Source: an uncultured Bifidobacterium sp. (GTDB taxonomy: Bacteria > Acidobacteriota > Vicinamibacteria > Vicinamibacterales > CAVVIG01). From it: DNA of 64,000 nucleotides. Where the stretch lies: assembly GCA_964577955.1 (NCBI GenBank), contig CAZOAZ010000001.1, positions 116,357 to 180,356 of the forward strand, written 5' to 3'. The notes beneath the pieces are model-generated. The model made no database searches and had not been told where the DNA came from. It saw only the letters and a program-made list of their open reading frames with translations. A program made the position numbers and the translations under genes. The stretch's first letter is position 1. Each line of letters begins with the position of its first letter. This document shows positions 1-59,726 of the stretch, one piece after another.

Positions 1-2897
1 ATCGGCGGGTCCGACGCCGACGGGTTGGTGGCGCGCAGGAGGGTTTCGATCGCCAGCGCGCGGGCGACGCGGAACGGTTCGCCGGCGTCGAGCGCGAGCA
101 GCAGATGCCGGGTTTGAAAGTGCGAGGCGCGCACTGCGTCCACGAGCGCCAACCCGGTGGTCACGGACCAGCACGTGTCGATGCGGAGCAGGGTCTCGTC
201 CGGAACCGCGGCGGCGGGCCGTTCGCGAAAATCGAGGCCGCGCAGCCGAAGCTGCGCCCGGCGCAGGAGCAGCGAGACGAGCGCAGAGCGCGGTCCCGGC
301 GGCAGGCGCAACCCAACCGCGGAGAGCACCGATTGAATGACCTGCAGGCCGCGATCGATGTGCCCACCAACCAGAAACTGTTCCGCGGCGCGGCGTTCCC
401 ACTCGATTCTGCCCGGGTGATTCGTTCCCGAGGCGGCGTTCAGATACATCTCCGCGGCATCGGCGGGACGTCCGGCGTCGGCGAGAGCCGTGGCCAGCCC
501 CTGTTTCCATGCCTGAGCCGCCGCCGCGCCTGGGTCGAGATCCAGTGCGGCACGATAGCGTTCCGCCGCGCGATCGAAGGCGAGCGACCGATGAGCCTTG
601 ACGGCTGCGCGCGCGCCTTGGATGGCGGCGTCGGGACGGTTCCCCGCGCCGCGATAGTGCTCGAAAAGCGCGTCCGGATCGTCGATGCCCGATGCGAGCA
701 GCGCCCGAATGACGTCGCCATGAATCTGGACCGTGCGCTCGGACGAAAGGTCCGCGGTCAACGCTTGACGAATGCGGTCGTGATAGACCTCGACATGCGT
801 CGAGGAGCCGCTGCTCCGCAGCAGATGCGCGGAACGGAGCAACGAGACAAGCGGCCGGTCGTCGCCGTGAAGTCCCGAGGCCTGATGAACGAGATCCGCC
901 GGCATCGGGCGTCCGCAGACCGCGAGCGTTTCAATCAGCGGACGCGCGGCTTCAGGCAACGCGTCCAACTGCGCGTCTATCATGCCGATCAGCGATGCCG
1001 GTTCGTCCGCGGCGGAACGGCGACGCGCGACATGGCTGGCCAACTGTTCGATGAAGAACGGATTGCCCGCAGCCTCGACTTCGAGCCGCCGCCGCGCGGC
1101 CGCCGAGATCGGCGCGCCGGCGAGCCACGCGTTCATCAGCCGCTCCGCATCGCCGGCGTCGATGGGGCCGAGCGCCAGCGTCGACCAGGTGTCGGACGTC
1201 GCGCGATCGAGAAACCGGCGCAGGAACGGCTTGGCGGCGGTTTCCTCACTGCGGAAGGACAGGATGGTCAAGAGTGTCGGCGCCTGCGGCGGACGGAGCA
1301 GTTCGTCCAAGAGCAGCGCGCTGTCGGCGTCGGCCCAGTGCAGATCGTCGACGACGAAGACGAGCGGTCGATGTTCGGCGATCGCCGCGAGCAGTGCCCG
1401 GAGCGCGGCGAAGGCCTGGCGCCTGAGCGCGATCGGATCCATCCCCGCGTCCGGTACCGCTTCAGGGATAGCCGCGACGTCGAAGAGGACGGGAAAGAGG
1501 CGCGCCAGCGCCTGTATCCCCGGCGGCAGCAGCGTCCGCGCGCCCTCAGGCGGAAGCCCGGCGAGGTGCTGGCTCAGACGGTCGACGATCATGTCGAGCG
1601 CCTTGTACGGCACGGTCTCGTGCTCGTAGCAGCGCCCGCGCAGAATCACCAGGTCTGGAGTCTTCGCGATCCGATCGAGGAACTCGCGAATCAGCGCGCT
1701 TTTGCCGATTCCCGACGGACCGTGCACGGCGACCGCCGCGGCGCGTCGGCGGCTGACGGCGAACGCGCGGTCGAGCAGACGCAGCGGCTCGTTGCGGCCG
1801 ACGAACGGCGTTCGCGCGTCGGCGTCAGCCACCGGCGTTGACGGCGTGCGCCGCAGGCGAGCGTGCCGGTTCGTCGTCAGCAAGCCGTTGCGGGCTGACA
1901 GCCGCCGGGCCGGGTCGATCGAGAGCAGGTCCATACAGGTTTCGCTCAGATCGAACGGAACGCTGAACGCGCCAGCTGGCGCCTCCGGCAGCGTCGTGCG
2001 TTTGTGTTCGAGCTGTTGCGCGAACGAGCCGGCGAACGGGAGGTGGCCAGTCAGGGCGCGGTACAACGTGACGCCGACGGCGTACCAGTCGCTTGCCTCG
2101 GAGGGTCGGCCGCCGGCGAGATCCTCGGGCGCGAGATACGCCGGCGTGCCCGCGACGCGGTCCGCCGCCGCTCCGTGTTCCGGAGTCACATCAGCGACCA
2201 GCCCGAAATCGAGGATGACGACACGCCGATCCGCTGCGATCAGAACGTTGGACGGCTTGATGTCACGATGCAGCTTGCCGTGGCGGTGAAGCGCATCGAT
2301 GCCATCCGCGAGCTGGCCGAAGGCGTCACGGAGCCGCTCGATCCGGTCCGCGGCGTGCGCCGGGTCGTCGAGATACGCCAGCAGATCGACGCCGTGAATC
2401 CGCTCCATCGTGAAGAAGCCGTGTCCCTCTTCGACGACCAATTCGTAGAGCGGCACCAGGTTGGGGTGCGCGACGTCGGCGAGGCTGCGGAACTCACGCT
2501 TGAAGTGCAGCAGATCGGCAGGGTGGGCGTCGCGGAGCGTTTTCAGGGCGACGATCTGCTGTCGCGTCGTGTCGAGCGCCTCGTAGACGACGCCCATGCC
2601 GCCCTCGCCGAGACGCTGACGGATCTGGTAACGGTCCGTGCCGGTGAAGGGTGCGGCGGCGCTGCGTGCAAAGGGATCTGCCGGAGTCGATGGGGCGTCG
2701 ATCGGGATCGTCAGCACCGCCGGCGACTCGAGAAAGTCTCCCGCCGACGTGTGGGCGCGCAGCAATTCCGCGAGGGCTTCGCGGATGGCCGGATCGTCTG
2801 CGGACAACTCGTCGAGGCGGCTGGCCAGCGCGACGGTATCGTCGGTCAGCGCCGACTGAAACACGGTCAGCGCGCGGCGCCAGCGTTCGGGAGTCAC
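1..2897 (-). CDS. Ser/Thr protein kinase fused to an AAA+ (AAA_16/STAND-like) ATPase and probably a TPR region. Partial: the C-terminal part runs off the left edge of the window.
   Basis: Reverse-strand translation from GTG ~2897 gives VTPERWRRALTVFQSAL..., then Hanks kinase motifs: GEGGMGVVY, HRDIKPSNVLI, DFGL, GTPAYLAPE. It continues in the same frame into a Walker A GPSGIGKSALIREF near 1700. The plus-strand ORFs 105..1841 and 2004..3071 are its Arg-rich antisense. It is absent from the ORF track because it has no stop inside the window. Confidence 0.8.
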   Translation of the reverse strand, partial: MTPERWRRALTVFQSALTDDTVALASRLDELSADDPAIREALAELLRAHTSAGDFLESPAVLTIPIDAPSTPADPFARSAAAPFTGTDRYQIRQRLGEGGMGVVYEALDTTRQQIVALKTLRDAHPADLLHFKREFRSLADVAHPNLVPLYELVVEEGHGFFTMERIHGVDLLAYLDDPAHAADRIERLRDAFGQLADGIDALHRHGKLHRDIKPSNVLIAADRRVVILDFGLVADVTPEHGAAADRVAGTPAYLAPEDLAGGRPSEASDWYAVGVTLYRALTGHLPFAGSFAQQLEHKRTTLPEAPAGAFSVPFDLSETCMDLLSIDPARRLSARNGLLTTNRHARLRRTPSTPVADADARTPFVGRNEPLRLLDRAFAVSRRRAAAVAVHGPSGIGKSALIREFLDRIAKTPDLVILRGRCYEHETVPYKALDMIVDRLSQHLAGLPPEGARTLLPPGIQALARLFPVLFDVAAIPEAVPDAGMDPIALRRQAFAALRALLAAIAEHRPLVFVVDDLHWADADSALLLDELLRPPQAPTLLTILSFRSEETAAKPFLRRFLDRATSDTWSTLALGPIDAGDAERLMNAWLAGAPISAAARRRLEVEAAGNPFFIEQLASHVARRRSAADEPASLIGMIDAQLDALPEAARPLIETLAVCGRPMPADLVHQASGLHGDDRPLVSLLRSAHLLRSSGSSTHVEVYHDRIRQALTADLSSERTVQIHGDVIRALLASGIDDPDALFEHYRGAGNRPDAAIQGARAAVKAHRSLAFDRAAERYRAALDLDPGAAAAQAWKQGLATALADAGRPADAAEMYLNAASGTNHPGRIEWERRAAEQFLVGGHIDRGLQVIQSVLSAVGLRLPPGPRSALVSLLLRRAQLRLRGLDFRERPAAAVPDETLLRIDTCWSVTTGLALVDAVRASHFQTRHLLLALDAGEPFRVARALAIETLLRATNPSASDPP

Positions 2898-2995
2898 GGG
2901 GCGAGAAATCTTGGCCGGTCCAAACTGTGCGAATCCGTCAAATCTTACTCCGGCAGGACGACCGCCCCGCGCGTCGCCTCCTGCTATGCTTCCGT

Positions 2996-3562
2996 GTGCC
3001 CGAGTCGAGTGAGGTCACCGAACTGCTGCTGGCGTGGCAGCAGGGGAGCCGCCAGGCGCTGGACCAGTTGATGCCGCTCGTCTACGGCGAGCTCAAGGCG
3101 ATTGCGGGGCGCTACCTTTCCCACGAGCGTGCCGGCCACACGCTGCAGTGCACGTCGCTCGTGCACGAGGCGTATCTCAAGCTGATCGATCAGCGTCGCG
3201 TCCAGTGGCAGAACCGGGCGCACTTTTTCGGCATCGCGGCGCAGATGATGCGCCGGATCCTCGTGGATCACGCGCGCGCCGCGCATCGCGAGAAGCGCGG
3301 CGGGTCCGTGCCGACTCTCTCGCTGGACGCGGCGATGGAGGTTCCGGCCGCGGCGTCGGGCGTCGACCTGCTGGTGCTGGATCATGCGCTGGATCGTCTG
3401 GCGGAGATCGAACCGAGTCTCGGCCGGCTCGTCGAGTTGCGCTACTTCAGCGGCCTGACGATCGAGGAATCCGCCGCCGTCCTGGGCACGTCACCTGGCA
3501 CGGTGAAGCGCGAGTGGGCCGCCGCCCGCGCCTGGCTCTTCCGTGAGATGTCTCCGAGTTAG
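2996..3562 (+). CDS. ECF-subfamily RNA polymerase sigma factor (sigma-70 regions 2 and 4)
   Basis: The C-terminal part of track ORF 2651..3562 reads ...LLAWQQGSRQALDQLMPLVYGELKAIAGRYL...LVHEAYLKL...LRYFSGLTIEESAAVLGTSPGTVKREWAAARAWL. The probable start is GTG ~2996. It lies divergent to the kinase/ATPase gene. Confidence 0.85.
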   Translation: MPESSEVTELLLAWQQGSRQALDQLMPLVYGELKAIAGRYLSHERAGHTLQCTSLVHEAYLKLIDQRRVQWQNRAHFFGIAAQMMRRILVDHARAAHREKRGGSVPTLSLDAAMEVPAAASGVDLLVLDHALDRLAEIEPSLGRLVELRYFSGLTIEESAAVLGTSPGTVKREWAAARAWLFREMSPS

Positions 3563-10631: not shown

Positions 10632-11210
10632 TCAACTTCTTCCCGCCGTCCAGCGTATCGCTTGACGAATCTGACTCAGGAATCCGGCGTCCGTCCACGT
10701 TGATCCGAAGTGGCCGAGCGCGTTGTAGTACACGCGTCCGGTCCCCATCGTCTTTGTCCACGCGAGCGGATAGTCGCCACTCGCGCCGACGGATGCGGCG
10801 TCGAGCGTCAATAGCACGTGGACCGATGGCCGGGGATTCTCGCGGAAGGTGTAGAACTCGTCGAAAAGTTGAAACGACGCGCCGATGCCGGTGTGGATCG
10901 GGTGCGCGCGATCTTCGACCGCCACCCGCGCGGTCTGGGTCCACGGATGTTCCTTGAAATAGGCGCCCACGAGCGCGCCATACTCCGGCCAGCCGTACAA
11001 CGTGTCCGTGGCGCTGTGCGTGCCGATGAATCCATGGCCGCTGGATACGAAAGCAAGGAGCGAAGCCCGCTGCGCGGCCGTCAACGGCAGCTCGCCGGAG
11101 GTCATCGCGAAGAAGATCACATCGACCGACGCGAGGGCGGCAGTCTCGAATGCCGAGCATGCTGACAGTGTACGTTCCGAATCGTACGTTTGTCGCTCGG
11201 AGTCTGACAC
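10632..11210 (-). pseudogene. ThuA-like protein (type-1 glutamine amidotransferase-like), apparently truncated at the 5' end
   Basis: ...VDVIFFAMTSGELPLTAAQRASLLAFVSSGHGFIGTHSATDT...YYNALGHFGSTW matches the ThuA core. The first ~50-60 residues, including the KVLVF strand, are missing. The track ORF begins with a non-homologous MSDSERQTYDSERTLSAC. A repeat block lies upstream. Confidence 0.45.
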
Positions 11211-11352
11211 CCGAACGTCCTTAAACGCGGTGTGTCAGAGTCCGAGCGACGAGGTGGATGCTGGCCGTCAGAATCCGAGCGACCTGTCGGAGTCATGTAG
11301 ACGATCGGTGTCTGACACCCGGCGTCAGAAGCCTTGCCGGTGTCAGACACCG
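11190..11352. repeat. Block of short inverted and direct repeats (TGTCTGACACC / GGTGTCAGACA and CAGARTCCGAGCGAC x2)
   Basis: gtctgacaccc (11199), gtgtcagagtccgagcgac (11233), gtcagaatccgagcgac (11263), ggtgtctgacaccc (11301), ggtgtcagacaccg (11337). Confidence 0.5.
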
Positions 11353-11357
11353 ATCTT

Positions 11358-14207
11358 CTACTGGAGCTTCATTGCCTCGCTGAATGCCTGTGTCAGCGCC
11401 GGCACATCGGTATCCGCGTCCCGCCACAACGTCGCGAAGTTCTGATACGCCACGCGGGCGATCGCCGTCTCGCCCGACATTGCCAGCGCCCGTGCCCGCT
11501 GCAGTTGCGCCAGCGCGCCGACCGGGTCGCTGACGACGATGCCGCGATGGTCGAGGATGCGCTGGAATTCGGCGGCGGCCTCGGTGCCGTGGTGAAGGGC
11601 GAGGTAGGCGAGCCCGCGCACGTAGATCGGGTAGAGCGCGCCGAAGAACGTCGGCGTCGAGCACGGCGGCATGGCCAGCTCGTACGGAATCGTCGCCTTG
11701 AGCCATTCAATCGCCTTGGCCGGCTCGCGCCGGTTGATGGCGGTGAGTGCCCGCAGCGTCGGAATGTACGTCGAGCGAACCGCGGTGTCTTCCGGAAACC
11801 GTTTCTCGAGATCGGCCGCGAGCGCCAGCGGACGCGCGGTGTCGCCCACCAGCGCGAGCGCGAAGGCCGCCCCGTACTCGACATCCCGTCCCGTGGACAT
11901 CATCAGCGCCGCGGTGGCGGCGTGTCTGGCTTCGGCCGTGTTGCCGGCAAAGGCTTCCCAGAGCGAGCCGCCGGTTTCGTAAAGCGCCGCGATCTCGCGC
12001 TTGCCGACCTGCTGCGCGCCTTCAACCGCTCGCCGCAGCGTTTTCCGCGCCTGCTGCATCCGGCCGCCGTAGGCCAGCACGAAGGCTTCGCGATCCGTGA
12101 TCCAATCCTCGATGCCGGGCTTGCCGCGGTTGATCGCGACCTCGCGCTCCATCGCCGCGATGTCGCCTTTGAGGAAGGCGAGGTCGTAGCGTTGTAGCGA
12201 GAAGTCGGGCGTGTCGATGCCGCGCGTCGCCGCCTGGCGCATGGCGTTCTCGGCATCGTTGAAGCGGTTGAGGAACTGGCTATTGAACGCCAGCTCCAGA
12301 TAGCCGGCCGGGAAGTCCGGGTCCAGCGCGTTCTGCTTGCGCGCTTCCTCGATCGCCTTCTCGTAACGGCCGAGCGGCGGATAGACGAACGCCGCCAGCA
12401 GCGTATGCGGCACGATGTCGCGTGGATAGGTGCGGCTCCACAATTCGAAGGTCTGCTGCGCCCGCTCGATGTTGCCGGTGACCTGAAGATCGTAGTTCGC
12501 GGTGATGAAGAACTTCTCGCGATCGGTCGTCCGGTCGCGCAGCTCGAACGCCGCGGCCCCGCGCTCCGCCGAGAGCCCACGCTCGCCGACGAGATTGAAG
12601 GTGAAGCCGAGCATCGCGTGTGCCATCGCGAACTTCGGATCGATCTCGATCGCCCGGCCGAAGAGTCCGATCGCGGCCGGCAAATCGTTGACCGAGAAGA
12701 GCACCTTGAGCGCAGCACTGTACGCCTTCAGCGCTTCGAGCGATGGGGTTGACGCTTCCTCGAGCGGCTTGTCGTGTTCCTTGACCGTGGCCAGCGATTC
12801 GCCGACTTTCGTGCGGAAGCGGCTGGCGATGCGGCTCAGCGCGTTCAGCACTTCTTCCTTCCGCTCCGCCTGGATTTGCTCGGTGTCGATCACTTCGCCG
12901 GTCTTGCAGCTGGTGGCGCGGAGCCCGAGCACGTACTGCGTGCCGAGCGTGGTGATCGATCCGTCCAGCACCGCGGCGCTGGCGGTTCGGACGCAGATGT
13001 CGCGCGCGATCTCCGGCGTGAGGCGGGCATCGCCTGGCTGTCCCATGAGGCGAAGCGTCGCCTGGAGCCGTTCTTCGGAGACCAGGCTGAGGAACGGCGA
13101 CTGTTCGAGTTGGACCGTCAGCCCCTGGCGCAGCGTCCCGTCGAAGACGGCATCGCCGGTGGTGTTGGCGAAATCGGCGAGCACCAGAGTGTCCTTGTCG
13201 GTCAGCGTCGGTGCGCTGCGGCCGGCGATCAGAAACGCGCCGCCGACGCCGAGGAAGAGGAGCGCGGCCACGCCGGCCAGGATCCAGCGGCCGGTGTGAG
13301 ATGACGTTGGCTCGTGCGCCGCGATCGTCAGGCGGCCAGTGTCGGTGTTCCGCTTCAAGCGGCGCAGGTCGACGAGAATGTCCCCGGCGTGCTGATAGCG
13401 CATCGCCGTGTCCTTCTCGAGGCACTTCTCGATGATGTGCGCGAACTCGATCGGCAAGTGCGGATTGAGCTTTCTGACCGGCGTCAGCGGACGATTGAGA
13501 ATCGCGTCGGCCGTAGCCGGCCAGGTGTTGCCTTTGAACGGGAGCGCCCCGGTGGCCATCTCGTAGAGGACGACGCCGAACGAGAAGACATCCGTACGGG
13601 AGTCGAGCGCGAGGCCGCGGACTTGTTCCGGCGACATGTAGGCAATGGTGCCCATCAGCGCGCCGGTTTCGGTGAGGCTGGTGTCCGGCGAATGCGTCGG
13701 CTGATGGGTCAGATCGATCGCCGCGGCCTCGGCCGCCCACGTCGCCAGCCCGAAGTCGAGAATCTTCGGCCCGTGCGCGGTGACGAAGATGTTCGCCGGC
13801 TTGATATCGCGATGGATGATGCCGCGCGCGTGCGCAGCCTGCAGGCCGTCCGCGACCGCGATCGCCACATCGATCATCGCCGACACGGTCATCGAGCCGC
13901 GGCCGAGCGGCTGTTGGAGCGTTTCCCCTTCGAGGAACTCCATCGCGATGAACGGCGGGTCGGTGCCGACATCGTAGATCGTGCAGATGTTCGGGTGGTT
14001 CAGCGCCGAGGCGGCGCGGGCCTCGCGCTGGAACCGCTCGAGCGCGGGCGGGGAAGTGGCGTTCTTCTCGGTCAGCACTTTGATGGCGACGGTGCGTTCG
14101 AGACGCGTATCCCGCGCGCGGTAGACCTAGCCCATCCCGCCGGCGCCGAGCAGGGTGGTGATCTCGTATGGGCCGATGCGCGATCCGGTGGCCGGGGCGG
14201 TCAGCAC
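11358..14207 (-). pseudogene. Ser/Thr protein kinase with a TM segment and TPR repeats, interrupted by an in-frame TAG in the glycine-rich loop
   Basis: Track ORF 11358..14078 has [20 protein letters not shown], then a TM helix and TPR-like repeats. Upstream in the same frame from GTG 14207 I read [47 protein letters not shown]. The TAG at 14127-14129 (minus strand) replaces the expected Glu (GAG). The plus-frame track ORF (…AVDLAHPAG…) confirms the gacctagcc bases. Confidence 0.7.
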
Positions 14208-14222
14208 AACACGTCCTTGTCG

Positions 14223-14981
14223 TTAGAAAGTGCGAGTGATTCGGAATCCCGCCGGCGCCACGGCCAACGACCACGTGGCGTGCGGGCGTGGAGCGATCGC
14301 ATCCCGTTGCGCGGGCGCTGGGTTCGTATACCGCTCATAGTCGTGCGCCGCGCGCATCGGCTGCGAGAACAGCTGGAGCTCGGAGATCGCCTGGCCGATC
14401 CCGAAGGTGACGACGCCGTCGATGGCCGGCCGATTGAACCCGACGGATGTCGTGAGCCCGGCGGCAGCGTTGACCGACAGCGAGAGCAGGCGCGACTTCC
14501 AGGATCGTCCGTACGATTCCTCGCGCGCCGCCTGCTTCAGGAAGCGTTCCGCCGCTCTGAGCTTCGCGCGGCGTTCGATGGCGGTGTCGCCCGGCAGCGC
14601 GCGGAGTCGCGAGGCGAAACGTCCGGCCTGCAGCGGGAACACGACCTGGCCCGCGGCGCCGAGGGCTGAGGTGGCTGCGCCAATAAACAGATCCTGACGT
14701 GTGGATTCGTCGGTGCTCGCTGCAGCAGCGAGCGCCTGCCCGGCGGTTCCGGCGGTATAGGCCGCCAGCCAGCCGTACCACCAGCGATTGGCACCGGCCC
14801 GTCCCGCGTCGAGCGCTTCCTGGATGAAGGCGAGACGAGTGGAGACTTCACCGTCAGACGGCTCCGTCGACTGCGCCCGAACGGCGGGCGCGCCGAGTTG
14901 GATCATCAGAATCGCCGCTGCGACGCCGTACCAGGCTCGGCCCCTCGAAATTCGGACGCCGCGGCCAGGACCAAGGACCAT
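14223..14981 (-). CDS. Secreted hypothetical protein
   Basis: Signal peptide MVLGPGRGVRISRGRAWYGVAAAILMIQLGAPAVRAQS. Ala-rich, with no recognised domain. The track ORF extends to 15071. Confidence 0.5.
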   Translation of the reverse strand: MVLGPGRGVRISRGRAWYGVAAAILMIQLGAPAVRAQSTEPSDGEVSTRLAFIQEALDAGRAGANRWWYGWLAAYTAGTAGQALAAAASTDESTRQDLFIGAATSALGAAGQVVFPLQAGRFASRLRALPGDTAIERRAKLRAAERFLKQAAREESYGRSWKSRLLSLSVNAAAGLTTSVGFNRPAIDGVVTFGIGQAISELQLFSQPMRAAHDYERYTNPAPAQRDAIAPRPHATWSLAVAPAGFRITRTF

Positions 14982-15202
14982 GGCGATGCGAATCAGAAAA
15001 CGTCCTACAGGAGGGTTCCGAACAGCTCGGCCGTTCGGGGCCACCGCCGGGATTGACAGTGTTTGTCCCACAGCCCGTTAGACGGCCCTTGTACGGTTTT
15101 TCCGTAGAGCTCGTTAGAGCACTTCGGTGGCGTCCGGACTTCGCGTGGCGTCCGGCTTTAGCCGGACCTCATGAGACGTTCGTCTCTTGACTTGCTGACA
15201 TC

Positions 15203-16420: not shown

Positions 16421-16458
16421 CGAATTAACAATTGACAATAGTCAATTGTCAATTCGAG
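16421..16458. promoter_or_regulatory. AT-rich imperfect palindrome containing TTGACA motifs (putative promoter/operator of the VOC gene)
   Basis: cgaattaacaattgacaatagtcaattgtcaattcg lies 10-47 bp upstream of the ATG at 16468. It is a sharp low-GC island. Confidence 0.45.
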
Positions 16459-16467
16459 AATCCGCCC

Positions 16468-17280
16468 ATGACGAAACATCTTCTCGCGCTCGCATCGGTT
16501 CTCTTGGTTGCCGCGCCGGCCCGCGCGCAGCTGGTCATGGCCAATCAGCTCGGCGTCACGATGGGCCACGTGCATCTCGTCGTCAAGAACGTCGAAACGC
16601 ACAAACGCTTTTGGATCGATGTGCTGGGCGGGACGCTGGTCAAGAACGGACCGCTGGAGCTGATTCAGTTCCCGGGCGTCTACATCATGCTGCGACAGGG
16701 CGAAGCGACCGGCACGCCCGCCGGCACGATCGTCAATCACTTCGGCTTCACCGTGAAGGACATGAAGGCGTCGCTCGAGAAGTGGAAGGCCGCGGGCGTG
16801 CAGATCGAGCCGACCGAGAACCCGAACGAAGTCTACGTCCACACCGAGGACGGCATCCGCGTCGAGGTCTACGGCGAGCCGGCGCTGCCGACGCCGGTCA
16901 GCATGAATCACATTCACTACGCCGCGAACGACATCCCCGGCATCAAGGCGTGGTACGTGAAGGTGTTCGGCGCCAACCCCGGCCGCCGGCCGTGCATTGC
17001 GTGCCTGGCGCGGCCGGCGATGATCGAGTCCGACGATCTGCCGGGTGTGAACCTGTCGTTTGGCGGCAGCCGTACGCCGACCGCGCCGACGAAAGGGCGG
17101 TCGCTCGATCACATCGGCTTCGAAGTCGCGAACCTCGAGGCGTTCGTCGCGGCGATTGAGGCCAAGGGAATCAAGCTGGATTCGCCGATCCGTCAGGTCC
17201 CGAACTCGAAGGTGAAGGTCGCATTCCTGACCGATCCCTACGGCACCTACATCGAGCTGACCGAAGGCCTCGCTCCGTAG
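16468..17280 (+). CDS. Secreted VOC-family protein (glyoxalase/bleomycin-resistance/dioxygenase fold), two VOC modules
   Basis: Signal peptide MTKHLLALASVLLVAAPARAQ. Motifs HVHLVVKNVE..., HFGFTVKDM..., MNHIHYAANDI..., LDHIGFEVANLEAF. Confidence 0.75.
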   Translation: MTKHLLALASVLLVAAPARAQLVMANQLGVTMGHVHLVVKNVETHKRFWIDVLGGTLVKNGPLELIQFPGVYIMLRQGEATGTPAGTIVNHFGFTVKDMKASLEKWKAAGVQIEPTENPNEVYVHTEDGIRVEVYGEPALPTPVSMNHIHYAANDIPGIKAWYVKVFGANPGRRPCIACLARPAMIESDDLPGVNLSFGGSRTPTAPTKGRSLDHIGFEVANLEAFVAAIEAKGIKLDSPIRQVPNSKVKVAFLTDPYGTYIELTEGLAP

Positions 17281-17812: not shown

Positions 17813-18712
17813 ATGACTCCAGTCATCGACATTGAAAATCTGGTTCGCCGCTACGGGCGGACCGACGCGGTCAACGGTCTCAGTCTCCGCGTCCCGCCCG
17901 GACGTTGTTACGGCTTCTTCGGCAGAAACGGCGCCGGCAAGACAACGACGATCAAGTGCCTGCTGAATCTGCTCCGGCCGGCCAGCGGGCGGATCACCGT
18001 CTTTGGCGCGGATCCGGCGCGCGACGAAGTGGCGATCAAATCGCGGCTGTCCTACGTGCCCGATCAGGTCGCCTTCTATCCGTGGATGACGGTGCGCGCG
18101 ACGCTGGACTACTGCGCCTCGTTCCGCGAGCGCTGGAATCTGGAGACCGAACGCACGCTGCTGCAGCGCTTCGGCCTCGATCCGCGGCAGAAAGCGACCC
18201 ACCTCTCGAAAGGGCAGCGCACGCAGCTGGCGCTGGTCGCGGCGATTTGCCCAGAGCCGGATCTGCTGGTGCTCGACGAGCCGACCTCCGGACTGGATCC
18301 GATCGTCCGCCGCGAGTTCATCGAAACCGTGATCGGCACCTATCAGGAAGGCGACCCGGAAAACCGGACCGTCTTCGTTTCGACCCACCTCATCGCCGAG
18401 TTCGAAGGGCTCATCGACGAGTTCACCATCATCGAACGCGGGAGGAACGTGCTGACGATGGAGGCGGACGCGGCGCGGGCGCGGTATCAGAAGATTCACG
18501 CCAGATTCACCGTCGAGCCAGCCGGCCTGGATCTGTCGGGCGCCCGGGTGCTGCGTCGTGACGCGCGCGACCTCGAGCTCGTCGCCGATGGCTCTGGCGC
18601 CGACATGCTCGCGCGCCTTGCCGCTTTCTCGCCGGAGGTTCTCACCAGCGAGGCGCTGACGCTCGAGGAGATCGTCGTCAACACGCTGCGCCCGCTGGGG
18701 GCCGTCGCATGA
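17813..18712 (+). CDS. ABC transporter ATP-binding protein
   Basis: Walker A GRNGAGKTT, signature LSKGQRTQ, Walker B LLVLDEPTSGLD. Confidence 0.9.
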   Translation: MTPVIDIENLVRRYGRTDAVNGLSLRVPPGRCYGFFGRNGAGKTTTIKCLLNLLRPASGRITVFGADPARDEVAIKSRLSYVPDQVAFYPWMTVRATLDYCASFRERWNLETERTLLQRFGLDPRQKATHLSKGQRTQLALVAAICPEPDLLVLDEPTSGLDPIVRREFIETVIGTYQEGDPENRTVFVSTHLIAEFEGLIDEFTIIERGRNVLTMEADAARARYQKIHARFTVEPAGLDLSGARVLRRDARDLELVADGSGADMLARLAAFSPEVLTSEALTLEEIVVNTLRPLGAVA

Positions 18713-20151
18713 ACGCCGTGCTTCGACCGATCGAAAAGGAAGTGCGCGCGCTGATGGTGCCCTGGATGGCGGCGGCGGCGCTCTTTGGCGTGCCATTGTT
18801 GCTGGAGTGGCGCGTCAGACCTGTCTTCGGCATCGTCGTGTTCACGGCCAGCGCCATCGTCCTCGGCGCCATGTCGATCGGCCACGAACTGTCAGACCGG
18901 ACGCTCGGCTGGGCTCTCGCGCATCCGGTCAGCCGTTCACGACTGCTGGCGACGAAGGTTGGTGTCGCAGCGCTGATGTTGACGGCCCTGGCACTGATGG
19001 TGAATCTGCTCGACGGGATGGACTTGCGAATCAGTCGGGAATTTCCGAACGACTGGGTCCCTCTCGCGGTGACGTTGGGTATTGACGGTCTCCTGTTGGC
19101 GCTGTGGTTCACGCTCGTGACGCGCGATCCGCTCGCAGGCGTGGTGCTGGCGGGTGCGGCGCTGGCGCTGGTCTGGAGGCTGCCGGCGTTGCTTGTGATA
19201 CCTGGCGCTTTCGAGGTGTCGGTCCGAGTATGGGCGCTACGCGGACTTGCGGTTCTGGGTGCGTTGGCAGGGTGGTACACATTCACGCGTCTCGAGGTGA
19301 CCGATGGGAGTCGGTCATTGGACCTCACGGCGTGGTGGCCTGTTGCCAGAGGGCGAGCGTCCGCGTTCGAAACGCAGTCGTCAGTACAGCGTTCGCCGCT
19401 TTGGCAGCTCGCATGGAAGGAACTGCATCTGCAGCAATTGAGTCTGGCCGCAGCCGGAATCTACTTCGCGGTGTCCGGCATTGCGATCGTGGCGAATCGC
19501 GCCGGGCTGGGTCTGCCGGGATTCACGATCGTCAACTCGGTCTACGGCACACTGGCCAGTGTGATGTTCGGCTCGATGGCGATCGCCGAGGAACGTCGAT
19601 CCGGCGTCTGGGGGTGGCAGGCATCTCTTCCGATTCGAGCGTGGAAGCAATGGGCGCTCAAGCTGAACGTCGCGCTTGGCTCGAAGCTCTTGCTGGTGTC
19701 CGGACTGCAACTGCTGATCTTCTTGAGTGTGAGCCCGTACGAGTTCGGTTCTCTCGAGGAATACGAGGCGTTGGTCCACAGTCTCGCGTATTCCCTGGCG
19801 GTCGGCGTTGGCATGACCATCCTGGCGTTTTATGTGTCCTCGTTTTCATCGAGCGGCATCCGCGCCAGCCTGGTCACTCTGGTGACCATCGTGGTGATGC
19901 AGATCCTGATCCAGTCGACGCTGATGTTCATCAGCCGGTTCGGCTTCGGCGCCTCTCAGACGTTGGCGCTCACGCCGCCGATTCAGTTCGTGATCGCTGC
20001 CGGCGTGGCGGCCGTGATGTTGCGCCTCAGTTTCATCAACTACAAGTATTCGGACCCGGTTTCTGGTGTCCCGCGTCAGGCGATGGCGCTCGCCGCGAGC
20101 GTGATTGCCGTCGTGGCCCTGGCAACCATCGTGGTGGGAGTCATCGGATGA
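18709..20151 (+). CDS. ABC-2 type transporter permease (polytopic membrane protein)
   Basis: ATGA overlap with the ATPase stop. There are 10 or more hydrophobic segments. The N-terminus MNAVLRPIEKEVRAL is shared with the next gene. Confidence 0.7.
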   Translation: MNAVLRPIEKEVRALMVPWMAAAALFGVPLLLEWRVRPVFGIVVFTASAIVLGAMSIGHELSDRTLGWALAHPVSRSRLLATKVGVAALMLTALALMVNLLDGMDLRISREFPNDWVPLAVTLGIDGLLLALWFTLVTRDPLAGVVLAGAALALVWRLPALLVIPGAFEVSVRVWALRGLAVLGALAGWYTFTRLEVTDGSRSLDLTAWWPVARGRASAFETQSSVQRSPLWQLAWKELHLQQLSLAAAGIYFAVSGIAIVANRAGLGLPGFTIVNSVYGTLASVMFGSMAIAEERRSGVWGWQASLPIRAWKQWALKLNVALGSKLLLVSGLQLLIFLSVSPYEFGSLEEYEALVHSLAYSLAVGVGMTILAFYVSSFSSSGIRASLVTLVTIVVMQILIQSTLMFISRFGFGASQTLALTPPIQFVIAAGVAAVMLRLSFINYKYSDPVSGVPRQAMALAASVIAVVALATIVVGVIG

Positions 20152-21704
20152 CCGCGGCGCTCAGGCCGATTGAAAAGGAAGTCCGGGCGCTGCTCTTGCC
20201 GTGGCTCGCCGCCGCTGTGACGATCGGCGCGGCGCGCGCGGCCGCCAACGATCCCAATCGGTTCGTGCTCCTCGCCTACCTGGGCGGCGCGATCGTTCTT
20301 GGAGCGTGGTCGGTTGGTCATGAGTACTCCGGCCGGACGCTCTGGCTGTTGCTCTCTCAGCCGACCGCGCGTCCGCGCGTCCTTGTGACCAAGGTCGGCG
20401 TCATGGCGGTGATGCTGGCCGTCCTGGCCATCCTCGCCAGTCCGGTCTTGAGTCCGACAGACATTGCCTATAGCGGCGGCATCGCCAACGAACCGTCACT
20501 CCCGGCGCCCGTGGTTCCGGCCGTGGCGGGCCTGTTTCTGGCGCTGTGGGTGACGCTCCTGACCGGAAGTCCGATGGCCGGCACCGTGCTCACGACAGCC
20601 GTCATGGTCGCGATTTGGATCGCGCCGCAGGTCGCCTCGGCGTTTGCGTTCGGTCCGCCGTCGGAAGCGACCCAGGCGTTCGCATCGTTTGCCGCCATAA
20701 TTCGCGGGCGCGCGTTTGCCGTGCTCGCGATTATCGCCGCATGCGCAGGAGGCCTCTCGTTCCTACGGCTCGAAGCGATTGACGGCGGCGCTCGGCATGT
20801 CGATCTCTCCGCGTGGCCTCGGCAGGCCGCGACAGGTTCGGCGGTGCCCTCGAGACGGCGTGCCCCGCTCTGGCAACTCGTGCGGAAGGAACTGCATCTC
20901 CAGCAACTCACTTTTGTTGTGGCCGGCGCCTACACGCTGGTGTCCACCATCGCGTGGCAGGCGGGCCGCCTGAACCCGGGTTCGCCGCTCACGACTGTGG
21001 GACTGTTTACCACGCTCTACTGTCCACTGGTGGCGTTACTGATCGGCGCACTGGCAAGCGCGGAAGAGCGCCAGTACGGGACGCTCGAATGGCAGGTGCT
21101 GCTGCCGATCGCCGCGTGGAAGCAGTGGATGGTGAAACTCGGCACCGTGGTGATCCTGACAGGTCTCTGCGCACTCGCCTTGCCGATGGTGTTCGCGTTG
21201 CTCTATCCCGCCGGCAACGAACTGAGCTTCGCGTCCGCCTACCTGGCCGTCGTGCTCCAAGCGGCGCTCGTGGGTCTCTACGTCTCGTCCTTCTCGACGA
21301 GCGGGGTTCGGGCGCTGCTGGTCTCCATCCTTCTCATGTCAGCCGTCACGCTGCTCTGGATCGTGACGACGGTCGGCATCAGCAGATTCTTCGGCGGCGC
21401 GAACGACGGCATCGTGCGCTTTGCCCTGGAACAGGCTGCCGACCCGCAATTGCGTGCGCTGTGGTGGGGGAGGATGGCGCTGAGCACCATCGTCAGCATC
21501 GGCATTGTCGTGGCGATCTGCCGGCTGACGTTTCTCAATCATCGTTCGGCCGAGCGCGGATCGGGTCCGATTCCACGTCAGGCGTTCTGGCTCGCCGCCA
21601 GTGTGCTGGTCGCGGTTGCAGCCTTCAGCATCATGACCGGTGCCATCAACGTCCGGTCGCGCCAGATCTTTCTGGAGATGAGGACCTCGAAGCTGTCTCA
21701 TTAA
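20148..21704 (+). CDS. ABC-2 type transporter permease, a tandem paralogue of the preceding gene
   Basis: An internal start inside track ORF 19104..21704 (the part before it is Arg-rich and spurious). The ATG at 20148 overlaps the upstream stop as ATGA. It begins MTAALRPIEKEVRALLLPWLAAA. Confidence 0.7.
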   Translation: MTAALRPIEKEVRALLLPWLAAAVTIGAARAAANDPNRFVLLAYLGGAIVLGAWSVGHEYSGRTLWLLLSQPTARPRVLVTKVGVMAVMLAVLAILASPVLSPTDIAYSGGIANEPSLPAPVVPAVAGLFLALWVTLLTGSPMAGTVLTTAVMVAIWIAPQVASAFAFGPPSEATQAFASFAAIIRGRAFAVLAIIAACAGGLSFLRLEAIDGGARHVDLSAWPRQAATGSAVPSRRRAPLWQLVRKELHLQQLTFVVAGAYTLVSTIAWQAGRLNPGSPLTTVGLFTTLYCPLVALLIGALASAEERQYGTLEWQVLLPIAAWKQWMVKLGTVVILTGLCALALPMVFALLYPAGNELSFASAYLAVVLQAALVGLYVSSFSTSGVRALLVSILLMSAVTLLWIVTTVGISRFFGGANDGIVRFALEQAADPQLRALWWGRMALSTIVSIGIVVAICRLTFLNHRSAERGSGPIPRQAFWLAASVLVAVAAFSIMTGAINVRSRQIFLEMRTSKLSH

Positions 21705-28202: not shown

Positions 28203-29471
28203 TCAGGCGCGAAGAAAGTCGATCAGCAGTCTGGCGACGGCGTCGGGCTGTTCCTGCTGGACCCAATGGCCCGCGCCCTCGAGCAGGTGGACGCCGCGCA
28301 TCTGGGTGCACGCCGTCTTCGTCATCGCCTCGAGGCTGCCGGCGCGTTGATGCACGCCCCAGTCGCTCTTGCCCGAAATGAAGATGCTCGGGACGTCAAT
28401 GGTCCGGCCGGCAAAGAGCTGCAGCTCCTGCGACCACTTCGGATTCTGGCCGATGCGGTAGGACTGCAAGCCGCCTTGAAATCCGGTGCGGCCGTACTCG
28501 CTCGCATAGACCTGGAGTTCGTCCTCGGTCAGCCACGTGCACGCGGCAATCTCCGCCGCCGACGGCATCGCCGCCGCCGCCGTTTCCGCCATGCCCTGGT
28601 TCAGATCCATCACGTAGTACTTCGGCAGCTTCGCCAGCTCGCTGGCATTGAAGGCGGTGAGCGGGAACGGCTTGTTGTCTTTCCAGTCGGCGCTCTTGAA
28701 GTGATAGTAGGCGCGGATGAAATCGTGGATCCCCTGCCTGGGATGCCACATGTTTTCATTCGCGGGACGCGTCGCGTAGTAGGCCTGATAGTGCTTGCGC
28801 GGCTGCGGCAGTGCCGCGAGCTCCGCGTTGACATCGGGTCGTCGCGCCGCGGTAGGTGTGGGCTCCGGTTTCAACCGGGCCTCTTCGTAGGGGCCCACGG
28901 TGTTGAAAGGCAGCGTCGGCGATCCGCCGAACGGCGCGCTCATCAACGCCACCTTCGTGAAGACGTCGGGACGGGTGAGCGCGCACCAGGCCGCGACCGG
29001 TGAGCCGTAATCGTGGCCGATGATGGCGGCGACGCGGCGATAGCCGAACGCGGACACCAGTCCGAGCATGTCGCGCGTGTGATTCAGCTGCGTGAACGGT
29101 GCCAGGTCATCGTCGAACTTCACCTCTGTGCCGCCGGACCGTCCGTAGCCGCGCTGATCGGGAACGATGACGTGATACCCGGCGCGTGCCAGGGGGAGGA
29201 TGATCTTGCGCCAGCTGTAGGCGAGTTCCGGGAAGCCGTGGACGAGCAGCAGGAGCGGACGATTGGGCGTCTCGAATCCCGCTTCGAGGACGTGAAAGGT
29301 GATCCCGTTGACGTTGTTCACCAGCCGCGATCGGATCCCGGCCGGCAGCGTCGTCTGGCCGTAGAGCACCTCGCGGTTGACGGTTTGGGCCTGGGCGCGG
29401 AAGGGCAATGCGCTCGCGACTGACGCGGCGGCGAGACCCTGGATCACTTCGCGGCGGGTAAGGATAGGCAT
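28203..29471 (-). CDS. Tat-secreted alpha/beta hydrolase, epoxide-hydrolase-like
   Basis: Twin-arginine signal MPILTRREVIQGLAAASVASALPFRAQA. Motifs HGFPELAYSW (HGxP) and GHDYGS (Asp nucleophile elbow). Confidence 0.8.
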   Translation of the reverse strand: MPILTRREVIQGLAAASVASALPFRAQAQTVNREVLYGQTTLPAGIRSRLVNNVNGITFHVLEAGFETPNRPLLLLVHGFPELAYSWRKIILPLARAGYHVIVPDQRGYGRSGGTEVKFDDDLAPFTQLNHTRDMLGLVSAFGYRRVAAIIGHDYGSPVAAWCALTRPDVFTKVALMSAPFGGSPTLPFNTVGPYEEARLKPEPTPTAARRPDVNAELAALPQPRKHYQAYYATRPANENMWHPRQGIHDFIRAYYHFKSADWKDNKPFPLTAFNASELAKLPKYYVMDLNQGMAETAAAAMPSAAEIAACTWLTEDELQVYASEYGRTGFQGGLQSYRIGQNPKWSQELQLFAGRTIDVPSIFISGKSDWGVHQRAGSLEAMTKTACTQMRGVHLLEGAGHWVQQEQPDAVARLLIDFLRA

Positions 29472-51095: not shown

Positions 51096-53360
51096 CTAGA
51101 CTCCCGCCAGGCTCAGCGGCGATGCGGCGTCGGCGGCGGCCTGCGCGACGCCCGAGGCGTAGCGCACGTGTTGATGCGCAGCCGTCGCGCTCGTAAACGT
51201 GGTCGCGGTGGTGGTGGCCGTCCAGATTTCCTGCGTGGCGGTGACGAGCGAAGACGGGTCGCTCAGCGCCGGTGGCTTTCTGGAGGCGCTGACCATCGCG
51301 GACATCGCACTGAGATCGAGGTGCGCGCCCTCGAGCCGCGGCTCCTTGATGGCGCCGCCGATGATGACGATCTGAAAGACCTTGCGATCGTCCTGAATCC
51401 TCGAGGCGGCGAGCGCCGGATCGGCCGGCGAGAAGATCCGTCCGGCATTGAGGAGATCGAACGGTGGACGGTTGAGCGCTTCGGCCTGCGAGAGCGTGAT
51501 GTAGGTTCCCGGGCTGAAGCGCTCCGTCACGTCGGTCGTGCCGTTGGTGATCGTGACGCCCTGCGGGCCGCCGAGCGGCCGGCCGTCGACCCGATCGATG
51601 AGAATGCCGAGCGGGGCCCGGCGCTGCGCGACGCGCAGCGTGCCGGTCGGCGGAATCGCGGCAAAGCCGGACGTGGTCGGGCGCGGCGACAACACGACCA
51701 GCGGATCGCCGATGCTGCCGCTCTCGACGTTGTGCGGCTTGTTCAGTTCGTCGGTGAGAACCGTCAAGAGTGACGGCGCGGCCGGCAGCGTGTCGGTCGG
51801 TCCGCTGCCGAGCGTGAAGCTTTCGTCCCACGAGATGGAAAACAGGAAGACGTCGATGCTGAGCGAGCCGTGGATGACGATCGGTCCCGGCCCGGCGATC
51901 GATCCCTCGAGCGTGACCGAGGCGAAACTGAAGCCTTCGACGGAGACGTCAAATCCGGCCGCGACGCGCGCCTCGAAGTGGAACGGCCGGAACTGCACGA
52001 TCGCGTCGACCTGCAGGAAGCCGTGCGCTTCGATGCCGAGTGAGATGCCGACTTCCCAGCGGCCGCCCAACTGGATCGAGTTCGACGTAACGGCGAAGTA
52101 GCCTTCCGATCGGATCTCGATGATCGGGATCGGGTTGTCGAGCGCCAGCCCGACGCGGCGCAGGGCCGGCAGCCGCGCGGGTTCCGGGTTGAAGCCAGGG
52201 AAGAAGCCGCCGATCGACACCACCATGTAGCCCGGCGATCCCCAGCTGAATCGCGCCGCCGCGTCGCCGTACACGGTGAAGATGCCGAGCACGTGGCTGT
52301 CCACGAGACTGGCGTCGATAGACACCATCTGCTCGACCGGATCGATGAGCCCGAGGACATCCAGGCGCAGGTTGATCAACATCGGCAATCCCGGGATCGC
52401 CACCCGCGCGACTCCGAGGATGGCCACTCTGCCGGTCGGGATCTCGACGATCACCGCGAGGTCGATGCCGATCAGGGCGCCCTCGGGACCGAATGACAGC
52501 CACGAGACTTTCAACGACGGGCCAATCAGATGCGTCCCGCGATTGGCGGGGAAGAGCTGATCGGCGATGACGACGAGCGCCATCGGGTTCGCTGGCGGCC
52601 GAACGGCAAAGAGGACGTCGCCAGCTGCGCCGGTGCGCACCGCGCCGCGCAGCGCGTCGCTGTCGGTCCGCCGGTTCACGCCGACGATGCCGCCGACGCG
52701 GTCGAGAGAAAAGCCGAAGGAAAGTTGAATCGGCGGGATGAACTGCGCGCCGAGGATGGCGAGCAGCGAGGGCTGGCCGTCTTTCGTCGCCACAACGGCC
52801 ATGGCGCTGACCTGCACCGGACCGAGCGGCAATTCCAACGTGCCGCCGAACCCGTCGCCGACACGGCCAAGCGCGCCACCGCCTGGCAGTCCTTTTCCGC
52901 CGCCAAATGGCGACGACATGCTGGCGGCGATCTGATCCAGGCGAAACGGTCCGATCGCGGCAGTCGGCGGAGCGGCATTGTCCGACAACGCCGGTGGCTG
53001 GATGACGAGCAGAGAGGACGCGAGCTCGAGGTGAACCGGACCAAGGTCCAGGCCGCCGTGAATGCCTTCCCGGCCGATGTTGGCCACGTCGGCGAGCAGT
53101 TCGGCGAAGCCGGGGATCTTGGCGAGCGGACCGGCAAGCGCGCTGGCAAGGGTCGCGCCGAACGCGTCGCGCTTGTCGTTCCAGGTGGCGAGCGCCGCGT
53201 TCCATGCCGCCTGAGTGACGGTGCCAGGCGGGTCGTTGGCCAGTCCAGCGAGCGCGGTCGCCGCGGCGGTGAGATCGTCGAGCGGAGTCGTGGGCGCGCC
53301 CGCGGCCGTGAGCCACGTACGCAGCTCAGTGGCATACGCGGTGATGTCGCTACCTGCCAC
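51096..53360 (-). CDS. Hypothetical giant protein (754 aa), beta-rich C-terminal half. First gene of the operon.
   Basis: GTG start at 53360 with a GAGGAG SD 8-13 nt upstream. The C-terminal half is rich in alternating hydrophobic/Gly segments (…GYFAVTSNSIQLGGRWEVGISLGIEAHGF…). No TM or signal. Confidence 0.65.
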   Translation of the reverse strand: MAGSDITAYATELRTWLTAAGAPTTPLDDLTAAATALAGLANDPPGTVTQAAWNAALATWNDKRDAFGATLASALAGPLAKIPGFAELLADVANIGREGIHGGLDLGPVHLELASSLLVIQPPALSDNAAPPTAAIGPFRLDQIAASMSSPFGGGKGLPGGGALGRVGDGFGGTLELPLGPVQVSAMAVVATKDGQPSLLAILGAQFIPPIQLSFGFSLDRVGGIVGVNRRTDSDALRGAVRTGAAGDVLFAVRPPANPMALVVIADQLFPANRGTHLIGPSLKVSWLSFGPEGALIGIDLAVIVEIPTGRVAILGVARVAIPGLPMLINLRLDVLGLIDPVEQMVSIDASLVDSHVLGIFTVYGDAAARFSWGSPGYMVVSIGGFFPGFNPEPARLPALRRVGLALDNPIPIIEIRSEGYFAVTSNSIQLGGRWEVGISLGIEAHGFLQVDAIVQFRPFHFEARVAAGFDVSVEGFSFASVTLEGSIAGPGPIVIHGSLSIDVFLFSISWDESFTLGSGPTDTLPAAPSLLTVLTDELNKPHNVESGSIGDPLVVLSPRPTTSGFAAIPPTGTLRVAQRRAPLGILIDRVDGRPLGGPQGVTITNGTTDVTERFSPGTYITLSQAEALNRPPFDLLNAGRIFSPADPALAASRIQDDRKVFQIVIIGGAIKEPRLEGAHLDLSAMSAMVSASRKPPALSDPSSLVTATQEIWTATTTATTFTSATAAHQHVRYASGVAQAAADAASPLSLAGV

Positions 53361-53393
53361 GAGCGCGGCTCCTCATCGAAGGACGAAACGGCG

Positions 53394-58566: not shown

Positions 58567-59726
58567 GACGCTACGACCTTCGTGACGAAGAGCGGCTCCG
58601 GCTGCAGAGGCACGTGCGCGATTGGGCCGGTGCCGGCCTGTTGACGGTTGCCCAGGCATCCGCGATCGACGTGGAGCTGCGGACGCCGCTTCGAAGCACC
58701 GGCACGATGCTGCGGCTCGGGCTGGCGATCTTCACATTCATCTGCGCCATCGCCGCAACCGCCTTCGTGTCCGTCGTCTTCAACGTCCGTGGCGAGGGAG
58801 CGGCGGCCGCCCTGTGTGGTCTCGCCGCCGTCGCGGCGTTCGTCGCGGCGGATCAGTTCGCAGGGGCCAAGCACTTTCATCGTCACGGTGTGGAAGAAGC
58901 CTTGGCCGTGTGCGCGGTCGCCTTTGCGACGGTCAGCGTCGTGTTGACCTTGGGGCAGATCGGCCGCTGGTCCGAGGATCTCATCGCCGTCGGCCTGACC
59001 GTTGCCGCAGGGCTTTCAGTGCTCTGCTACGTGCGCTTCGGTTTTCAGTACGCGGCGATCGCGGCTCTCGTGCTGGCCGCGCTCATTCCGCTTCCGCTCG
59101 AGATGCGATCAGAGGTCAAGCGCCTGTTCGCCGCGGCGGTGTGTGCTGGCGCGTTCGTGACGGCTCGGGTGGCGAGGTCACGCGCCAGCAGCGAAATCCT
59201 GGAGGACGACGCGGATGTCGTCAGCGCGGCGGCGTTTGCCGGTATCTACATCGCATTGAACCTGCAGCTGGTGCCGGTCGAACTTGGGGTCGTGCGTGGC
59301 GAGGCCCGGTGGTTCTGGTGGCTCACTTACGCGTGCACCTGGCTGCTTCCAGTTGCGGGCCTGTGGCGCGCGATCGGCGCGCGCGATCGGACACAGCTGC
59401 GCGTGAGCGTGGTGCTGTTGGTCGTCACGCTGGTGACCAACAAGCCGTATCTCGGCTGGGCCAGGAATACGTGGGATCCGATGCTGCTTGGTGTCGTGTT
59501 GATGGTCACCGCGCTGGTCGTCCGCCGATGGCTGGCATCAGGTGCCGATCATCAGCGCGGAGGATTTACGGCGGACCGTATCCTGCCGAGCGAGGAGGAG
59601 GCCGTACAGCTCGCTGGCCTCGCGTCAGCGGCCGTTCACATGCGTCCTGGGGCTCAGCCGGTGCCGACGCCGCCGACATTCGGCGATGGACGCTCAGGCG
59701 GTGGCGGAGCGACCGGCAGTTTCTGA
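58563..59726 (+). CDS. Integral membrane protein (DUF2157/DUF4401-like), translationally coupled to the preceding gene
   Basis: ATGA overlap at 58563. N-terminus ...HVRDWAGAGLLTVAQASAI. Multiple TM helices. The upstream part of track ORF 57648..59726 is spurious. Confidence 0.55.
   Translation: MRRYDLRDEERLRLQRHVRDWAGAGLLTVAQASAIDVELRTPLRSTGTMLRLGLAIFTFICAIAATAFVSVVFNVRGEGAAAALCGLAAVAAFVAADQFAGAKHFHRHGVEEALAVCAVAFATVSVVLTLGQIGRWSEDLIAVGLTVAAGLSVLCYVRFGFQYAAIAALVLAALIPLPLEMRSEVKRLFAAAVCAGAFVTARVARSRASSEILEDDADVVSAAAFAGIYIALNLQLVPVELGVVRGEARWFWWLTYACTWLLPVAGLWRAIGARDRTQLRVSVVLLVVTLVTNKPYLGWARNTWDPMLLGVVLMVTALVVRRWLASGADHQRGGFTADRILPSEEEAVQLAGLASAAVHMRPGAQPVPTPPTFGDGRSGGGGATGSF

Follow-up and report, generated by a model that had tools for sequence, protein, structure and literature searches.

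An in-frame TAG just after the glycine-rich loop of a predicted receptor-type Ser/Thr kinase gene is probably a recent nonsense mutation

On the minus strand of the 64-kb stretch of DNA that we analyzed (the window), a gene for a Ser/Thr kinase has a TAG codon, in frame, immediately after the glycine-rich loop. Does this TAG abolish the kinase, does it exist only in the assembled sequence, or is it decoded so that a kinase is made? We found that the locus is a kinase gene by descent and not an intact kinase gene. It is probably an ordinary, recent nonsense pseudogene of a redundant kinase, and kinase-dead.

We found that the native start of the gene lies upstream of the TAG. Read directly on the minus strand, the gene comprises 949 codons, from a GTG at 14207 (14207-14205) to its own TAG at 11360-11358. 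On that strand a TAA (14225-14223) is followed by a spacer that contains the Shine-Dalgarno-like sequence AAGGA (14218-14214), which lies 6 nt 5' of the GTG and forms a calculated duplex of -8.0 kcal/mol with the tail of 16S rRNA. Homologues of the full-length kinase begin 10-12 residues before the motif IGPYEI, in agreement with initiation at this GTG. The start is only 15 nt from the end of the upstream gene (14223-15071, minus strand), which encodes a conserved hypothetical protein and is probably co-transcribed with the kinase gene.

The 26 codons that precede the stop (14207-14130) encode the N-terminus and the Gly-rich loop LGAGGMG (14147-14130). From GTG 14207 the frame reads V-L-T-A-P-A-T-G-S-R, then I-G-P-Y-E-I, then T-T-L-L-G-A-G-G-M-G, and then TAG (DNA: VLTAPATGSRIGPYEITTLLGAGGMG). 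The TAG is codon 27 (14129-14127) and the next base is G. Past the TAG the same frame is open for 922 codons and reaches the TAG at 11360-11358. Past the stop, the first codon at which translation could start in frame is a GTG at codon 44 (14078-14076), where a 906-aa ORF had been called. The 16 codons in between (14126-14079) contain VAIK (14090-14079), whose lysine is the catalytic Lys43. The remainder of the kinase domain (14075-13395) has all of its catalytic motifs intact. It is followed by a hydrophobic segment (residues 307-329; 13289-13221) that we read, from its sequence, as a single transmembrane helix, and by a C-terminal region of ~620 residues with TPR repeats (13220-11361) that is conserved end to end with homologues. 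The normal terminator is near the ends of homologues P0002-P0004.

When codon 27 was restored to Glu, the 949-residue product matched the Pfam family Pkinase (PF00069) with E = 3.7e-44 and 151.5 bits (cutoff 31.7), and it also matched TPR families. The Pkinase match covered residues 14-271 and profile positions 1-252 of 263. Because the match starts at residue 14 and at profile position 1, the stop is inside the kinase domain. The motifs of the family are in place: GAGGMG at residues 21-26, VAIK at 40-43, the alpha-C Glu62, HRDIKPAN at 132-139, DFG at 151-153, SPE (APE-like) at 192-194, and DVFSFG at 206-211. Judged by these motifs, the gene is predicted to be that of a receptor-type Hanks Ser/Thr kinase, with a kinase domain, a transmembrane helix and a TPR domain. 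In an intact kinase gene, one uninterrupted frame joins the Gly loop and Lys43 to the catalytic core; here that frame is broken by the TAG at codon 27, and the next start is at codon 44. The original prediction had placed an in-frame TAG at 14129-14127, downstream of a canonical kinase N-terminus that was left out of the gene call. Reading of the minus strand confirmed both, with coordinates and motifs all correct: the frame from GTG 14207 encodes the Gly loop, and Pkinase is matched from its first profile position.

We found that codon 27 was ancestrally a GAG. Thousands of full-length homologues with the same architecture were found, mostly labelled Acidobacteriota/Terriglobia, and they cover 99% of the query. 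The best of them, P0002, is 71% identical. It is encoded on an 8-kb metagenome contig (L081), where the kinase gene is preceded at 13 nt by a hypothetical gene on the same strand (3001-3762 of L081) that is 53% identical (E = 1e-81) to window positions 14226-15071. Farther upstream, a divergently oriented glyoxalase gene of L081 is 78% identical to window positions 16432-17277. The region of codon 27 reads GGCATGGGCGAGGTCTACCGCGC in L081 and GGGATGGGCTAGGTCTACCGCGC in the window. Since this syntenic orthologue has GAG, GAG is the ancestral state, and a single transversion, G to T, accounts for the lesion, in support of the single G>T change that had been proposed. We also considered the genome-derived loci L001-L080 and found no synteny with the window in any of them; only L081 was syntenic. 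A degenerate pattern for the same orthologue, with NAG at codon 27, had 0 matches in the metagenome contigs.

Glu had been expected at codon 27 as the residue that follows GxGxxG. That expectation holds for all of the closest relatives, which have E, but it does not hold across the family: many others, in a more distant subgroup, have V, and the residues found are E, V, D, M and I. Because this residue varies, the position tolerates substitution.

The hypothetical protein encoded 13-15 nt 5' of the kinase is conserved between the window (14223-15071, minus strand) and L081 and has no Pfam match. It could be a specific partner of kinases of this subfamily.

We suggest that a real and recent G-to-T transversion turned codon 27 from GAG (Glu) into TAG. 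Ribosomes that initiate at the native GTG 14207 would then terminate after 26 residues. The only ORF left would be the one from GTG 14078, which lacks a ribosome-binding site and whose product would have neither the Gly loop nor the catalytic lysine; it is on these grounds that the locus would be a young, kinase-dead pseudogene. Such a pseudogene would be tolerated because the genome encodes many paralogous kinases. The window holds three GGMG kinases. Neither of the other two is damaged; at the corresponding codon one has GAG (7083, plus strand) and the other GTC (2609, minus strand), so that kinase redundancy is seen within the same 64 kb. We infer that the organism itself carries the stop, rather than the assembly alone, and that the locus gives rise to no protein of importance.

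We found no damage to the gene other than the TAG. No further stops or frameshifts are present besides that at codon 27. We aligned the gene with 119 homologues and evaluated 197 near-invariant columns. The kinase gene differed at 3 of the 197 (R467K, T486S and Y537F), all conservative changes, and it is within the range of the intact homologues, which differ at up to 8. Relaxed constraint or additional lesions downstream of the stop, as expected of a nonsense pseudogene that has begun to decay, were not found. Because the rest of the gene is undamaged, the stop is either very recent or not in the organism, that is, a consensus error. Going by this sequence comparison, the undamaged downstream region would fit a very young lesion, without proving loss of function. 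An artefact, or a polymorphism of very recent origin, would account for the stop equally well.

We found that disrupted kinase genes are common in related genomes. The related genome loci that we surveyed (1.48 Mb) contain 103 motif-bearing kinases and 105 kinase domains. A stop at codon 27 was found in none of the 103. Elsewhere in the kinase domain, in-frame stops occurred in 2 of the 105 domains (L050 and L073), and kinase domains were split by frameshifts in three of the related loci (L030, L073 and L076). Disrupted kinase domains thus amount to ~4-5% of the 105. A stop within a conserved domain, such as that in the window, does not arise as a chance coincidence of sequence, yet one disrupted kinase is within the base rate.

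Stops at codon 27 do occur in metagenomes. A scan with the pattern GxxGGMG-TAR-VY[RK]A identified 39 metagenome contigs with a stop at this codon (33 TAG and 6 TAA), representing ~30 distinct alleles; 38 of the 39 are kinases. At least 20 of the 39 contigs have extra frameshifts or are N-terminal remnants, whereas ~7-11 distinct alleles show no other damage over the length that their contigs cover. Some identical stop alleles were assembled independently from different samples (L106 and L112; L107 and L115; L083, L085, L097 and L100), which indicates that stop-bearing alleles at codon 27 exist in nature. The kinase family is very large (1,097,948 cluster representatives at 50% identity, E <= 1e-3), and from its size we would expect a few dozen stops at one Glu codon as mutational background.

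The contigs L083, L085, L097 and L100, which are from different soil samples, share one kinase remnant, GAGGMG-TAG-VYQARD, with unrelated sequence beyond it. The remnant looks like a gene fragment that has persisted within a single population.

The main alternative to a nonsense pseudogene is that the TAG arose as an error of assembly or consensus, or comes from a minority allele that the assembler picked up, and that the organism has GAG and an intact kinase. The lack of decay in the rest of the gene and the single-base difference from the codon of the orthologue are both consistent with this alternative. In addition, the assembly seems to be the only one of its kind, and a second genome that would confirm it was not found: 9 of 10 window proteins tested are singleton clusters at 90% identity among ~15 billion proteins, indicating that the lineage has been sampled once in public data. 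The matches listed in a scan of genome contigs were paralogues or distant relatives with at most 53% identity. (Homologues of window genes are mostly from Acidobacteriota/Terriglobia MAGs, and the GC content of the window is ~66%.) However, the consensus looks accurate. In Pfam scans, nearly all of the ~40 other ORFs had domain matches without signs of internal stops or frameshifts; the exception is one ThuA ORF that is without its N-terminal part. In error-prone assemblies, indels usually outnumber substitutions, and no indels were seen in the ORFs of the window. The frequency of truly disrupted kinases in related genomes, and the identical codon 27 stop alleles assembled independently from different samples, also argue against an error. 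We consider an error unlikely, and a recent nonsense mutation to be the better explanation.

We found no good signal for translation to restart after the stop. Pairing with the 16S tail at GTG 14078 was calculated to be +0.7 kcal/mol, compared with -8.0 kcal/mol at the native start, and no in-frame start within the kinase domain had pairing better than -2.6 kcal/mol. The 906-aa ORF that begins at GTG 14078 is the public gene call P0001 (NCBI-derived, on a contig of 296,416 nt). Because P0001 is exactly the 906-aa call, the deposited sequence carries the interruption too; because GTG 14078 is without Shine-Dalgarno pairing, the 906-aa model is a mechanical ORF call. It had been proposed that a restart here would cost the P-loop and the VAIK lysine, and this is borne out by the position of the GTG, one codon past Lys43. 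A product from this start would be without the ATP-binding Gly loop and the catalytic lysine, as read from the sequence.

Re-initiation at GTG 14078 or later could in principle turn the interrupted gene into one for a kinase-dead membrane TPR receptor or scaffold (a pseudokinase), the stop being real. Termination followed by re-initiation over ~48 nt, the distance here, is mechanistically possible in bacteria, and the 906-codon ORF is open and undamaged. However, an undamaged ORF is equally expected of a very young lesion, and the calculated pairing energies speak against initiation at any of these starts. Furthermore, no homologue naturally starts at the position of GTG 14078; the shortened calls P0054 and P0109 begin at the Met of GGMG, and VAIK is still present in them. 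We regard a pseudokinase as very unlikely, less likely than a sequence error, and return to the view that the gene is probably a nonsense pseudogene.

Many kinases in the databases (P0054, P0109, P0127, P0134, P0151, P0156 and others) begin exactly at the GGMG Met (MGEVY or MGVVY). These may be systematic start-codon miscalls, as the glycine codons before the Met (GGN GGN) look similar to a Shine-Dalgarno sequence, or they may be signs of upstream lesions.

We found that TAG is used as an ordinary stop codon in the window. Genes of the window (~40) were called based on GC1/GC2/GC3 composition. Their terminators are TGA (21), TAG (14, or 35%) and TAA (5), and the kinase gene is itself among those that end in TAG. 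Within the 64-kb window we found neither depletion of TAG as a terminator nor an in-frame TAG in other genes, and there was no coding signal past the other TAG terminators. No tRNA genes were found in the window with ARAGORN, and no pyl genes were found in Pfam scans of its ORFs. Programmed readthrough is characterized by a stop that is conserved in orthologues and by a stimulatory context or structure 3' of it. At this locus the orthologue has GAG, the base after the stop is G, and the calculated fold of 14135-14020 (116 nt, beginning just upstream of the stop) is no better than that of shuffled sequences (z = +1.08).

A screen for in-frame stops that used GC3 only was swamped by antisense-frame artefacts and was replaced by the GC1/GC2/GC3 call. 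Two other candidates for recoding or interruption were considered and set aside. A same-frame pair of ORFs separated by a TAG at 29499, considered as a readthrough fusion, was read as two genes: a complete Pfam domain is present in each, and an ATG at 29471 can start the second. An apparent frameshift in an ABC-2 permease (overlapping ORFs, 18709-21704) is two adjacent genes that meet at a TGA (20149-20151).

These results bear on the possibility that the TAG is decoded to give a full-length active kinase, whether through readthrough (programmed or conditional) or with a tRNA of the amber suppressor or pyrrolysine type. An inserted amino acid would probably be tolerated at a position where the residue after GxGxxG is variable. 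In Salmonella, proteogenomics of expressed pseudogenes found that low-level stop readthrough is mostly at UAG, with C as the most frequent adjacent base (PMC9122581). Stops at codon 27 also recur in metagenomes, including the ~7-11 distinct alleles that are otherwise intact. We rejected the 39 metagenome stops as evidence of recoding: they include TAA (6/39), most copies have extra lesions, and in a family of more than one million clusters at 50% identity they fit the mutational background. The everyday use of TAG as a terminator, the kinase gene included, with no coding signal beyond; the lack of tRNA and pyl genes in the 64-kb window; the lack of a downstream fold, and a next base that is G and not C; GAG in the syntenic orthologue; and the absence of a codon 27 stop from all 103 related motif-bearing kinases argue against decoding, which we consider highly improbable. 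The related proposal that an amber after the glycine loop is a leaky or conditional off-switch, at which decoding by a near-cognate or suppressor tRNA would put in a residue that is tolerated and supply a low dose of active kinase, with recurrence reflecting selection and not mutational noise, is just as hard to credit. If readthrough were true, the locus would be a rare natural case in which amber leakiness doses a bacterial signalling kinase.

The original prediction had ranked a recent nonsense pseudogene or a sequencing error ahead of readthrough or amber suppression. Our results support that ranking: codon 27 was originally GAG, there is no Shine-Dalgarno sequence at GTG 14078, TAG is an ordinary terminator, and the recoding signatures tested were negative.

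The significance of the finding lies mainly in annotation, where the 906-aa model from GTG 14078 should give way to a pseudogene, or to the full-length gene if reads show GAG. Acidobacteriota-like soil bacteria have very large sets of kinase genes, and the locus is also an example of turnover among them.

The surroundings of the kinase gene have several features of their own. Two long hairpins with a common core (GTCTGACAC) are located at 11192-11361, directly after and overlapping the kinase stop codon. One is formed by an inverted repeat of 23 nt (11297-11319/11339-11361; 96% complementary) and the other by an inverted repeat of 19 nt (11192-11210/11232-11250; 95%). The 13-mer GGTGTCWGACACC is present in three copies at the hairpins and nowhere else in the window, with 0.06 copies expected by chance. 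The hairpins could be a terminator or a REP/MITE-like element. The ThuA-family ORF (10632-11234, minus strand) matches its Pfam profile only from position 32 of 209, with 16 codons open upstream of the match, and its predicted start (11210) falls inside the second hairpin. This ORF looks 5'-truncated and may be a second damaged gene adjoining the kinase.

Other observations were made farther from the kinase gene. At 43242-53372 (minus strand) there are very large ORFs on the same strand (655, 1238, 853 and 758 aa), one of which encodes a DUF6603 protein while the other three are without a Pfam match. The 853-aa and 1238-aa ORFs, neither of which has a Pfam match, are in the same frame and are separated only by a TGA (48551-48553). 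This pair was likewise considered as a readthrough fusion; it may be two genes or one interrupted gene. A protein with a T6SS Tle1-like phospholipase domain (E = 5.5e-71) is encoded at 59654-61000 (minus strand). The third kinase of the window (1-3014, minus strand) is fused to an AAA_16 ATPase domain and runs off the window edge.

The interrupted kinase gene can be compared with four known systems. With pyrrolysine (UAG) systems, its only common feature is an in-frame UAG in a conserved domain. Unlike those systems, the window has no pylT or pylSBCD and no structure downstream of the stop; many of its genes end in TAG, and the orthologue carries a sense codon at this position. The gene also resembles bacterial nonsense pseudogenes, among them the Salmonella "pseudo-pseudogenes" (PMC9122581): in both cases a single in-frame UAG interrupts an otherwise intact gene that has paralogues. 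By analogy, low-level leaky expression of the window gene is conceivable, although the base after its stop is G, whereas C is the most frequent base at the Salmonella read-through sites.

The closest solved structure is that of M. tuberculosis PknB (PDB 5u94, 1mru and 1o6y), which aligns with residues 12-284 of the restored product (E = 5.7e-52). The window kinase is predicted to share with PknB an N-terminal kinase domain, a single transmembrane helix and an extracytoplasmic sensor. The sensor of the window kinase contains TPRs and is ~620 residues long, whereas that of PknB consists of PASTA repeats. PknB has GFGGMSEVH, with Glu where the window gene has TAG, and, unlike PknB, the window gene is interrupted at codon 27. 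A further comparison is with the kinase-TM-TPR family of Acidobacteriota (Terriglobia), P0002-P0120 (~945-1040 aa), which has the same architecture and 57-71% identity over 97-100% of the length. In these homologues the gene is uninterrupted, with E (in the closest) or V at codon 27, in contrast to the copy in the window, in which this codon is TAG.
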